In this document: positions 24,168 to 24,477 of the stretch, piece after piece
Layout of the letters: each line of letters begins with the position of its first letter
Numbering within the stretch: position 1 is the first letter of the stretch
Source of the DNA: a virus
Taxonomy: Duplodnaviria; Heunggongvirae; Uroviricota; Caudoviricetes
Virus record (IMG/VR): IMGVR_UViG_2627853794_000002
Location: 1-40,524 of that record
Reading direction: 5' to 3' (one strand)
DNA: 40,524 bases
Notes under the pieces: generated by a model
Told to the model about the DNA's origin: nothing
The model's input: the letters and a program-made list of their open reading frames with translations, nothing else
Database searches by the model: none
Made by a program: the position numbers and the translations under genes

Positions 24168-24242
24168 TGGAGCGGGCAGCGGGAATCGAACCCGCATCAT
24201 CAGCTTGGAAGGCTGAGGTAATAGCCATTATACGATGCCCGC
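24168..24242 (-). tRNA. tRNA-Gly (anticodon UCC)
   Basis: 75 nt; cloverleaf with loop CUUCCAA; CCA encoded; sequence matches host glyT as recalled. Confidence 0.85.
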
Positions 24243-24245
24243 ATA

Positions 24246-24321
24246 TGGTGCCGACTACCGGAATCGAACTGGTGACCTACTGATTACAAGTCAGTTGCTC
24301 TACCTACTGAGCTAAGTCGGC
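24246..24321 (-). tRNA. tRNA-Thr (anticodon UGU)
   Basis: 76 nt; loop CUUGUAA; CCA encoded; matches host thrU as recalled. Confidence 0.85.
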
Positions 24322-24323
24322 AC

Positions 24324-24400
24324 TGGACCGCCACCGGGGACTCGAACCTCGCACACTCAACTTAAAGGGTTGACGCTCTTTCCTGATGAGCTAGTGGCGG
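24324..24400 (-). tRNA. Atypical tRNA, anticodon UUU (Lys?) with C33
   Basis: 77 nt; perfect 7-bp acceptor stem CCGCCAC/GTGGCGG, anticodon stem TCAAC/GTTGA, loop CCUUUAA, T-loop TTCGAGT with one A-C mismatch in T stem; CCA encoded. Confidence 0.55.
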
Positions 24401-24401
24401 C

Positions 24402-24477
24402 TGGTGGCCCTTGCTGGATTTGAACCAGCGACCTGGCGATTATGAGTCGCTCGCTCTCACCACTGAGCTAAAGGGCC
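24402..24477 (-). tRNA. tRNA with anticodon CAU, most similar to tRNA-Ile2 (ileX/ileY-like) rather than elongator Met
   Basis: 76 nt; loop CUCAUAA; acceptor GGCCCTT/AAGGGCC; CCA encoded. Confidence 0.75.

Follow-up and report, generated by a model that had tools for sequence, protein, structure and literature searches.

A probable mosaic tRNA cassette in the late-operon leader of a lambdoid prophage

Four tRNA genes between Q and the lysis genes

The virus record IMGVR_UViG_2627853794_000002 (Caudoviricetes), analysed over its positions 1 to 40,524 and referred to below as the window, carries an array of four tRNA genes on its minus strand. ARAGORN detected exactly four tRNA genes in the array, running head to tail from 24477 to 24168, and all four were scored against the Rfam family RF00005, whose gathering score is 29 bits (Table 1). 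CCA is encoded in each of them, and the intergenic spacers measure 1, 2 and 3 nt. The Q antiterminator gene lies on one side of the array and a P21-type lysis cassette on the other; along the minus strand the order is Q, a promoter-like site, a terminator, the tRNA genes and the holin gene, which is the position of a lambdoid late-leader cassette. A preliminary description, made from the letters alone, had placed four co-oriented tRNA genes between a Q-like gene and the lysis cassette, and ARAGORN and Rfam return them at the same coordinates. That lambdoid and Shiga toxin (Stx) phages carry tRNA genes 3' of Q is textbook knowledge. Database annotations of related phages agree with the description's remark that lambdoid phages often carry tRNA genes at this late-operon site, as does the published SfI genome (PMC3636060).

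The first tRNA, with anticodon CAU, is identical to ileZ of Stx2a_F349 (76/76 positions) and matches K-12 ileY at 70/76, ileX at 68/76 and metT at 54/78 positions. Its acceptor stem, GGCCCUU...AAGGGCC, gives the pairs C4-G69 and C5-G68, where metT has U4 and A5. TilS reportedly tells tRNA-Ile2 from tRNA-Met by exactly these two pairs, as Ikeuchi et al. are said to have found in 2005. The annotation pipeline PGAP labels the gene tRNA-Ile. Judged by sequence, tRNA 1 is thus a tRNA-Ile2, predicted to read AUA after lysidine modification of its CAU anticodon; the identity to ileZ and ileY, together with the TilS determinants, rules out an elongator or initiator tRNA-Met.

The third and fourth tRNAs, Thr(UGU) and Gly(UCC), are identical to host genes. 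Comparison with K-12 (NC_000913.3) gave 76/76 positions for thrU and 75/75 for glyT, bearing out the identity proposed in the preliminary description. Also as proposed, the arrangement is unlike that of the host thrU-tyrU-glyT-thrT operon: tyrU, thrT and the host spacers are absent, and a TAT joins the pair, so that thrU and glyT are separated by 3 nt in the phage array against 209 nt in the host. Homology to the host operon stops exactly where the mature tRNAs end and does not reach into the flanks; the spacers read GT, TAT and GTTAGAG..., with no host-operon context. From these comparisons we take tRNAs 3 and 4 to be phage-borne copies and not the chromosomal locus.

The second tRNA was called Lys(ttt) by ARAGORN but matches Stx-phage argN (65/77 positions) rather than host lysT (47/79), which places it in the argN family. 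It has the unusual C1-G72 pair and U73 in common with argN, and it carries C16. Its anticodon loop reads C32-C33-U34-U35-U36-A37-A38, against C32-U33-U34-C35-G36-A37-A38 in argN; C33 thus stands where U33 is near-universal, and pair 51-63 of the T-stem is an A·C mismatch. The main identity elements for lysyl-tRNA synthetase (LysRS) are the anticodon U34-U35-U36 with A37. Both are present in tRNA 2, whereas the discriminator A73 and the universal U33 of tRNA-Lys(UUU) are replaced by U73 and C33.

Minimum-free-energy folding of the four sequences one by one was uninformative, giving a mostly cloverleaf structure for glyT only and failing even for the authentic ileZ and thrU, and helix support for tRNA 2 was taken from an alignment-based pair count instead. 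In an alignment of 18 sequences of the argN scaffold, 96.6% of cells are paired, compared with 29–55% for controls with slid partners. Relative to the commonest argN form, the Lys variants show two-sided changes at 7-66 (U-A to C-G), 27-43 (C-G to U-A) and 30-40 (G-C to A-U), and because of these compensatory substitutions we consider the cloverleaf of tRNA 2 to be maintained. C33 and UUU occur together in every Lys-variant sequence recovered, from 120 IMG/VR contigs (IMG/VR counts, here and below, are among the matches listed, and those of arrays are lower bounds). Decayed relatives also exist: the PPompW copy has a 1-nt deletion in the D-stem, and a remnant in the Stx2c prophage Stx2c_JNE lacks the anticodon arm. 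By its sequence, therefore, tRNA 2 is a structurally maintained, non-canonical UUU tRNA derived from argN with a changed anticodon loop.

The UUU variant of the argN scaffold is present in 797 of 5426 complete Escherichia coli genomes, approximately 500 of which carry variants of less than 99% identity. Among the matches listed, PGAP gives the label tRNA-Lys only at 98.7% identity or more, and variants at 97.4% or less, including those of the PPompW and Evi types, are unannotated.

Anticodons vary on both scaffolds. The argN body is found with UCG, UCU, GCG and UUU (the last with C33) and, in Yersinia-phage-like relatives, with UUG or UAU (with A33), while the thrU body is found with UGU, with UCU (phage SerU-LTIIb) and, in one IMG/VR contig, with UUU. 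Of the incidental results, this repeated change of anticodon on a fixed tRNA body is the most interesting, although it is descriptive only. We also observed that the argN-scaffold relative in Yersinia phage YeP2 has C at position 37, and that the loops with UUG or UAU and A33 are very atypical on an otherwise conserved body; in SerU-LTIIb, the UCU tRNA is called Arg and additionally shows D-arm changes and A31G.

Expression signals, distribution and mosaic build

A consensus scan recovered the candidate late promoter of the preliminary description, a match at 9/12 positions that overlaps the stop codon of Q and that, from its location, is a putative pR'. The tR'-like terminator proposed downstream of it is visible directly in the sequence as a hairpin followed by T6; the scan itself lists this hairpin for the plus strand only (24585-24608). 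Such a terminator would end a leader RNA of ~70 nt. In Rfam, the leader matches isrK (22.7 bits) and isrJ (24.5 bits) below their respective gathering scores of 50 and 37. isrK belongs to the late-promoter region of the Gifsy-1 prophage of Salmonella, and these weak matches fit a short RNA running from pR' to tR'.

A second, sigma-70-like promoter candidate was found by the consensus scan downstream of tR'. Its -10 element ends 9 nt upstream of tRNA 1 and is followed by the GC-rich discriminator CCTGCGCCC. Both TATTAT and this discriminator are common to the PPompW, Evi and VT2-Sakai arrays, and in the VT2-Sakai record AP000422 the equivalent site is annotated 'putative tRNA promoter'. The discriminator resembles those of stringently controlled stable-RNA promoters. 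Since this promoter lies past tR' and directly before tRNA 1, transcription of the cassette is probably not purely Q-dependent, and the earlier suggestion that expression depends on antitermination probably does not hold in its strict form. Our prediction is that the cassette is transcribed independently of Q, probably with Q-dependent read-through added after induction.

Between glyT and the holin gene lies a non-coding spacer of 292 nt that is strongly structured as RNA (fold z = -4.5). Its first hairpin (z = -4.9) has a 13-bp stem enclosing GAUGAUGGGAAAUCCCGGAG, and its second is a perfect 15-bp inverted repeat, TTATGAATGATCGCC...GGCGATCATTCATAA; a weak terminator-like CCGC-TTTT-GCGG-T6 is the only such element before the holin gene. 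The spacer is conserved 3' of Thr-Gly in phage phi467, and it matched no known Rfam family when positions 23600-24800 were scanned at permissive thresholds. It may be a decayed tRNA remnant, or an element for processing or termination. In Yersinia phage YeP2, a similar GATGATGGGATACCCTGAG motif separates two tRNA genes.

Of the 5426 complete E. coli genomes, 249 contain, at a coverage of at least 80%, the 1-kb stretch that runs from the end of Q across the tRNA genes and the spacer. Strain AH25 carries it at another attachment site, serU/mtfA, and it also occurs in the phage records vB_EcoS-689R5, vB_EcoM-606R7 and PhiR47_1. Among the IMG/VR matches, argN-scaffold arrays are mostly CAU-UCG-UCU, with ~20 of the composition CAU-UUU-UGU-UCC. 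The Thr-TAT-Gly junction is found in at least 120 IMG/VR contigs, and arrays containing it include 48 Thr-Gly, ~40 CAU-UUU-Thr-Gly, 14 CAU-Arg(UCU)-Thr-Gly and 5 Asn-(Thr)-Gly. Overall, post-Q arrays in other phages take the forms CAU-UCG-UCU, CAU-UUU-UCU, CAU-UUU-UGU-UCC, UGU-UCC and GUU-(UGU)-UCC.

Homology to phages of the PPompW type runs as far as the final base of tRNA 2 (24324) and that to phi467 sets in at thrU, placing a breakpoint at 24322-24326; two modules have therefore been fused in the array at a tRNA boundary. tRNA genes may in this way act as recombination joints between phage modules. The preliminary description had regarded the set and order as different from ileZ-argN-argO, which is half right: tRNA 1 is ileZ and tRNA 2 an argN derivative, and only argO is replaced, by thrU-glyT. 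The junction of tRNA 2 with thrU had no match among GTDB species representatives, so we regard the array as strain-variable accessory DNA.

Possible roles of the cassette

Taken together, our observations make it probable that the array is a mosaic tRNA cargo cassette in the late-operon leader of a lambdoid prophage, with the supply of limiting tRNAs as its likeliest role. One module would be the 5' part of an Stx-type cassette, comprising its own promoter, ileZ and an argN-family tRNA with C32-C33-UUU, and the other a host-derived thrU-TAT-glyT cut exactly to the mature tRNA sequences. Host RNA polymerase would transcribe the four genes as a single precursor from the cassette's own sigma-70 promoter, with Q-modified polymerase coming from pR' and passing tR' to add transcription after induction. 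RNase P would then cleave each 5' end, and exonucleases would trim the spacers of 1–3 nt to the encoded CCA. The Ile2, Thr-UGU and Gly-UCC products would duplicate host tRNAs of one or two gene copies and would read AUA, ACA (also ACG and ACU) and GGA/GGG, respectively, codons that the phage uses ~2–3 times as often as the host. Most likely, these three would increase the supply of tRNAs that limit phage translation, and they may also serve other genes that the lysogen acquired horizontally. The role of tRNA 2 is uncertain; it may add a further Lys decoder, or supply one that defence nucleases specific for tRNA-Lys could not cleave.

Codon usage, a check that the preliminary description had suggested, was compared between 48 phage open reading frames (ORFs; 10,171 codons) and 42 annotated K-12 genes (14,748 codons). 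Enrichment in the phage is 3.2-fold for AUA, 2.1-fold for ACA, 1.9-fold for GGA and 1.8-fold for GGG, consistent with supplementation; AAG is enriched 1.7-fold and AAA is not enriched. The cognate codons of the carried tRNAs rank 4, 5, 9 and 13 of 40. In K-12, thrU and glyT are single genes in the tufB operon and ileX and ileY are two genes, while five lys genes stand in one 2-kb locus. The same codon-supply argument, from a bias towards ACA, was put forward in the SfI genome paper for a post-Q Thr(UGU) gene, and none was found there for the tRNA-Asn (PMC3636060).

Several points weigh against this reading. Enrichment at the level of the set is marginal (p = 0.06; a random four do as well in 6% of cases), and the host reference consists of 42 K-12 genes, not the whole genome. 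The most enriched codons of all, AGG (6.1-fold), AGA (5.7-fold) and CGG (3.5-fold), are not read by this array, while argN and argO would serve them. In addition, the codon bias is strongest in the early genes, and the cassette lies in the late leader. For tRNA 2, a supply role is weak because tRNA-Lys is abundant in the host, and C33, U73, the A51·C63 mismatch and the decayed copies in other prophages suggest relaxed constraint. For Ile2, Thr and Gly, then, codon supply makes a reasonable account with moderate support; for the UUU tRNA it makes a weak one.

A more doubtful explanation is that the array is an anti-defence cassette, whose tRNAs sustain translation under tRNA-cleaving defences (PARIS AriB, P2-OLD, PrrC and HepS). 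The UUU tRNA would be a cleavage-resistant substitute for tRNA-Lys(UUU), and Thr(UGU) would top up the tRNA that is most critically depleted. AriB cuts between C40 and A41, and any one of U39A, A41C and U16C is enough to block or impair this cut (PMC12409363); because tRNA 2 has G39-U40-U41 and C16, it lacks the whole AriB site. P2-OLD acts against lambda mainly through the destruction of tRNA-ThrU, and requires a paired CNG at 28-30/40-42 plus A37 (PMC12445682). At this motif argN has CAG/CUG, and the change from G30-C40 to A30-U40 in tRNA 2, which leaves C28-A29-A30/U40-U41-G42, removes both CNG motifs; C33 of tRNA 2 also adjoins the PrrC cut site. Rescue from OLD has been seen with Thr(UGU) tRNAs of phages, lambdoid phage 21 among them (PMC12445682), and the Gifsy-1 nuclease HepS also targets Thr tRNAs (PMC13043305). 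Other post-Q lambdoid arrays carry Asn-Thr or Thr variants, and codon usage does not explain the tRNA-Asn of SfI (PMC3636060). In IMG/VR, again among the matches listed, ~30 of 120 thrU-derived phage copies have U16C, usually with U20C, and ~8 of 120 have a shortened or altered 3' anticodon stem at positions 42-43 (the JLK-2012 type). A change of G42 breaks the 40-42 CNG motif used by P2-OLD, and position 16 affects AriB cleavage; U16C and altered stems in phage Thr genes thus suggest selection by such nucleases within the family. The thrU copy in the window, however, shows none of U16C, U20C or the changes at 42-43. Being identical to the host forms, the Thr(UGU) and Gly(UCC) tRNAs of the array would be cleaved likewise, and extra host tRNA-ThrU gives little or no protection from P2-OLD (PMC12445682). 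The four nuclease papers name neither ileZ nor glyT as a target, the AriB site would be missing from any tRNA with an unrelated scaffold, and with its C33 and U73 tRNA 2 may decode poorly or be a weak substrate for LysRS. Because the Thr and Gly genes have the unmodified host form and the absence of the AriB site is weak evidence, we treat anti-defence only as a rival explanation, mainly for tRNA 2. Equally tentative is the wider proposal that tRNA 2 is a lysine decoder on an argN scaffold escaping nucleases of tRNA-Lys(UUU) and that the post-Q tRNA slot is an anti-defence hotspot, in which host-captured and phage scaffolds would repeatedly swap anticodons and gain nuclease-evading changes (U16C, shortened anticodon stems). 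If the UUU tRNA were indeed a cleavage-resistant Lys decoder, evasion of PARIS or OLD by viral tRNAs, so far a matter of large virulent phages such as T5, would also take in common temperate prophages; these occur in ~5–15% of complete E. coli genomes.

It is improbable that the cassette is largely a neutral passenger, kept because it lies where the Q and lysis modules recombine, with tRNA 2 a decaying pseudogene and thrU and glyT recent, redundant captures. The low score of tRNA 2, the lowest of the four, its C33 and T-stem mismatch, the damaged and the divergent, unannotated relatives described above, and mosaic breakpoints at tRNA boundaries would all be expected of such a passenger; the three compensatory double substitutions, which keep every helix, the constancy of C33 with UUU in all Lys variants recovered and the wide distribution of the four-gene array argue against it. 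The conserved promoter and the exact trimming to mature ends further suggest selection for a compact expressed unit. As for an assembly artefact, in which host tufB-operon tRNAs were wrongly joined into the prophage, the complete identity of two members to thrU and glyT is the sole point in its favour, and its probability is negligible. The preliminary description had named such a misassembly as the finding that would overturn its reading. We looked for it and rule it out, given the missing tyrU, thrT and host spacers, homology that ends at mature termini, and the same region or junctions in many independent assemblies: the 249 complete genomes, with AH25 carrying it at a different integration site, the phage records 689R5, 606R7, PhiR47_1 and phi467, and the IMG/VR contigs with Thr-TAT-Gly. 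We retain the mosaic cassette with a tRNA-supply role as the preferred reading.

The prophage and related arrays

The window represents a contractile-tailed lambdoid prophage integrated at thrW, as indicated by its tail genes and by an end formed by the integrase, thrW and proA (Table 1). Further along the strand of the lysis cassette lie the terminase, portal and capsid genes, then those of the tail sheath, the tail tube, a P2/Mu-type tail chaperone and the tape-measure protein, with names taken from Pfam matches, the annotation of the related AH25 region and features under genome matches. thrW is the classic attachment site of SfV, SfI and their relatives. The thrW-integrated, lambdoid arrangement has been described for SfV and SfI of Shigella and for e14 of E. 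coli (PMC3636060). None of the 5426 complete E. coli genomes contains the whole prophage; the best match covers 81% of a 24.5-kb query at 97.8% identity, and the prophage is therefore mosaic.

Table 1 Features of the window, with positions, strands and the basis of each assignment
Feature	Position	Strand	Basis or remark
tRNA 1 (CAU)	24402-24477	-	ARAGORN; Rfam RF00005, 72.5 bits
tRNA 2 (UUU)	24324-24400	-	ARAGORN Lys(ttt); Rfam RF00005, 44.4 bits
tRNA 3, Thr(UGU)	24246-24321	-	ARAGORN; Rfam RF00005, 73.8 bits
tRNA 4, Gly(UCC)	24168-24242	-	ARAGORN; Rfam RF00005, 64.9 bits
Putative pR' late promoter	24688-24660	-	TTGCAA-17-TATATT; consensus scan
Leader	24584-24656	-	Sub-threshold isrK and isrJ matches
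tR'-like intrinsic terminator	24608-24583	-	CCCGC/GCGGG stem, 6-nt loop, T6; read from sequence
Putative sigma-70-like tRNA-cassette promoter	24515-24487	-	TTGCAA-17-TATTAT; consensus scan
glyT-holin spacer	23876-24167	-	Non-coding
Spacer hairpin 1	~24166-24110	-	
Spacer hairpin 2	~24107-24037	-	
Weak terminator-like element	23958-23941	-	
Q antiterminator gene, 229 aa	24672-25361	-	PF06323 Phage_antiter_Q, E=3e-90; annotated Q in identical E. coli AH25 region
Lysis cassette	22291-23875	-	
P21-type holin	23660-23875	-	Pfam PF04971
DUF1327 protein	23341-23655	-	Pfam PF07041
Lysozyme	22752-23285	-	Pfam PF00959
Rz-like ORF	22291-22770	-	Assigned from AH25 homologous-region annotation only
Tyrosine integrase	37903-39066	+	Prophage end
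tRNA-Thr(CGU), thrW	39081-39156	-	ARAGORN; fifth tRNA of the window
proA	39271-40524	-	Next to thrW
Invertase and tail-fibre segment	1517-3786		
LEM-3-like GIY-YIG nuclease-domain protein	1517-2341	+	
Pin/Hin-type serine invertase	2399-2989	-	
Tail-fibre C-terminal domain gene	2983-3366	+	
Tail-fibre assembly protein	3367-3786	+	
Early-region ORF, 164 aa	28337-28831	-	Marginal VasI match, PF11319

Near the start of the window, a Pin/Hin-type serine invertase gene adjoins oppositely oriented tail-fibre genes, which by analogy suggests an invertible host-range segment as in e14, Mu and P1. Beside this segment lies a gene for a LEM-3-like protein with a GIY-YIG nuclease domain, possibly cargo. 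An ORF in the early region matches VasI of the type VI secretion system marginally (26.7 bits against a cut-off of 26.5). We also considered whether the Gly(UCC) and Lys(UUU) tRNAs might tune a -1 frameshift of the lambda G/GT kind, and rejected this for the window. The slippery site of that frameshift reads G GGA AAG; the sole GGGAAAG on the minus strand (12114-12108), 26 codons into the P2/Mu-type tail chaperone gene, is in the wrong frame (GGG AAA G), and the myovirus-type tail module likewise argues against a G/GT frameshift.

As it stands the finding matters little in itself, the exact array being already annotated in hundreds of public genomes; the UUU tRNA on its argN-type body is the only odd member. 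It exemplifies modular assembly, with an Stx-type block of promoter, ileZ and argN fused to a host-derived thrU-glyT block, precise capture, with host tRNAs trimmed to their mature ends, and the change of anticodon on a fixed scaffold across phages.

Among the closest known systems is the ileZ-argN-argO cassette of 933W, VT2-Sakai and Stx2a_F349, for which our statements rest on database annotations and general knowledge. It occupies the same locus, 3' of Q, pR' and tR' and 5' of the late genes, with the same strand logic, and shares the -10 element and discriminator, an ileZ of 100% identity and an argN scaffold in the second gene. Unlike that cassette, in which argN has UCG with U33, the array described here has UUU with C33 in its second tRNA and thrU-glyT in place of argO, and it leads straight to a P21-type lysis cassette with no stx genes. 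The Asn(GUU)-Thr(UGU)(-Gly) arrays of SfI, Sf6, ST64T, P21 and JLK-2012 lie at the same post-Q locus; SfI is likewise a lambdoid myovirus at thrW next to proA, and JLK-2012 has the same Thr-TAT-Gly junction. Their Thr genes have diverged from thrU, whereas the Thr and Gly genes here are host-identical and Asn is absent. In JLK-2012, D-arm changes and two changes in the 3' stem leave the Thr gene only three standard anticodon-stem pairs, and the tRNA-Thr of phage 21 is reported to be partly OLD-resistant (PMC12445682).

The host thrU-tyrU-glyT-thrT-tufB operon has the same mature thrU and glyT sequences, but its tyrU, thrT, tufB, promoter and spacers are all missing here. Like nuclease-evading phage tRNAs, tRNA 2 is a phage-borne UUU tRNA that differs from the host at the AriB-relevant G39-U40-U41 and C16 and lacks the OLD CNG motif. 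The tRNA-Lys of T5 is reported to be a tRNA-Lys variant with a few substitutions near the anticodon stem-loop (PMC11464382), whereas tRNA 2 has its changed anticodon on a scaffold of the Arg type, together with U73 and C33, and the Thr gene beside it has the sensitive host form. The array is thus a common, publicly annotated kind of late-leader tRNA cassette, new in composition but not in kind.

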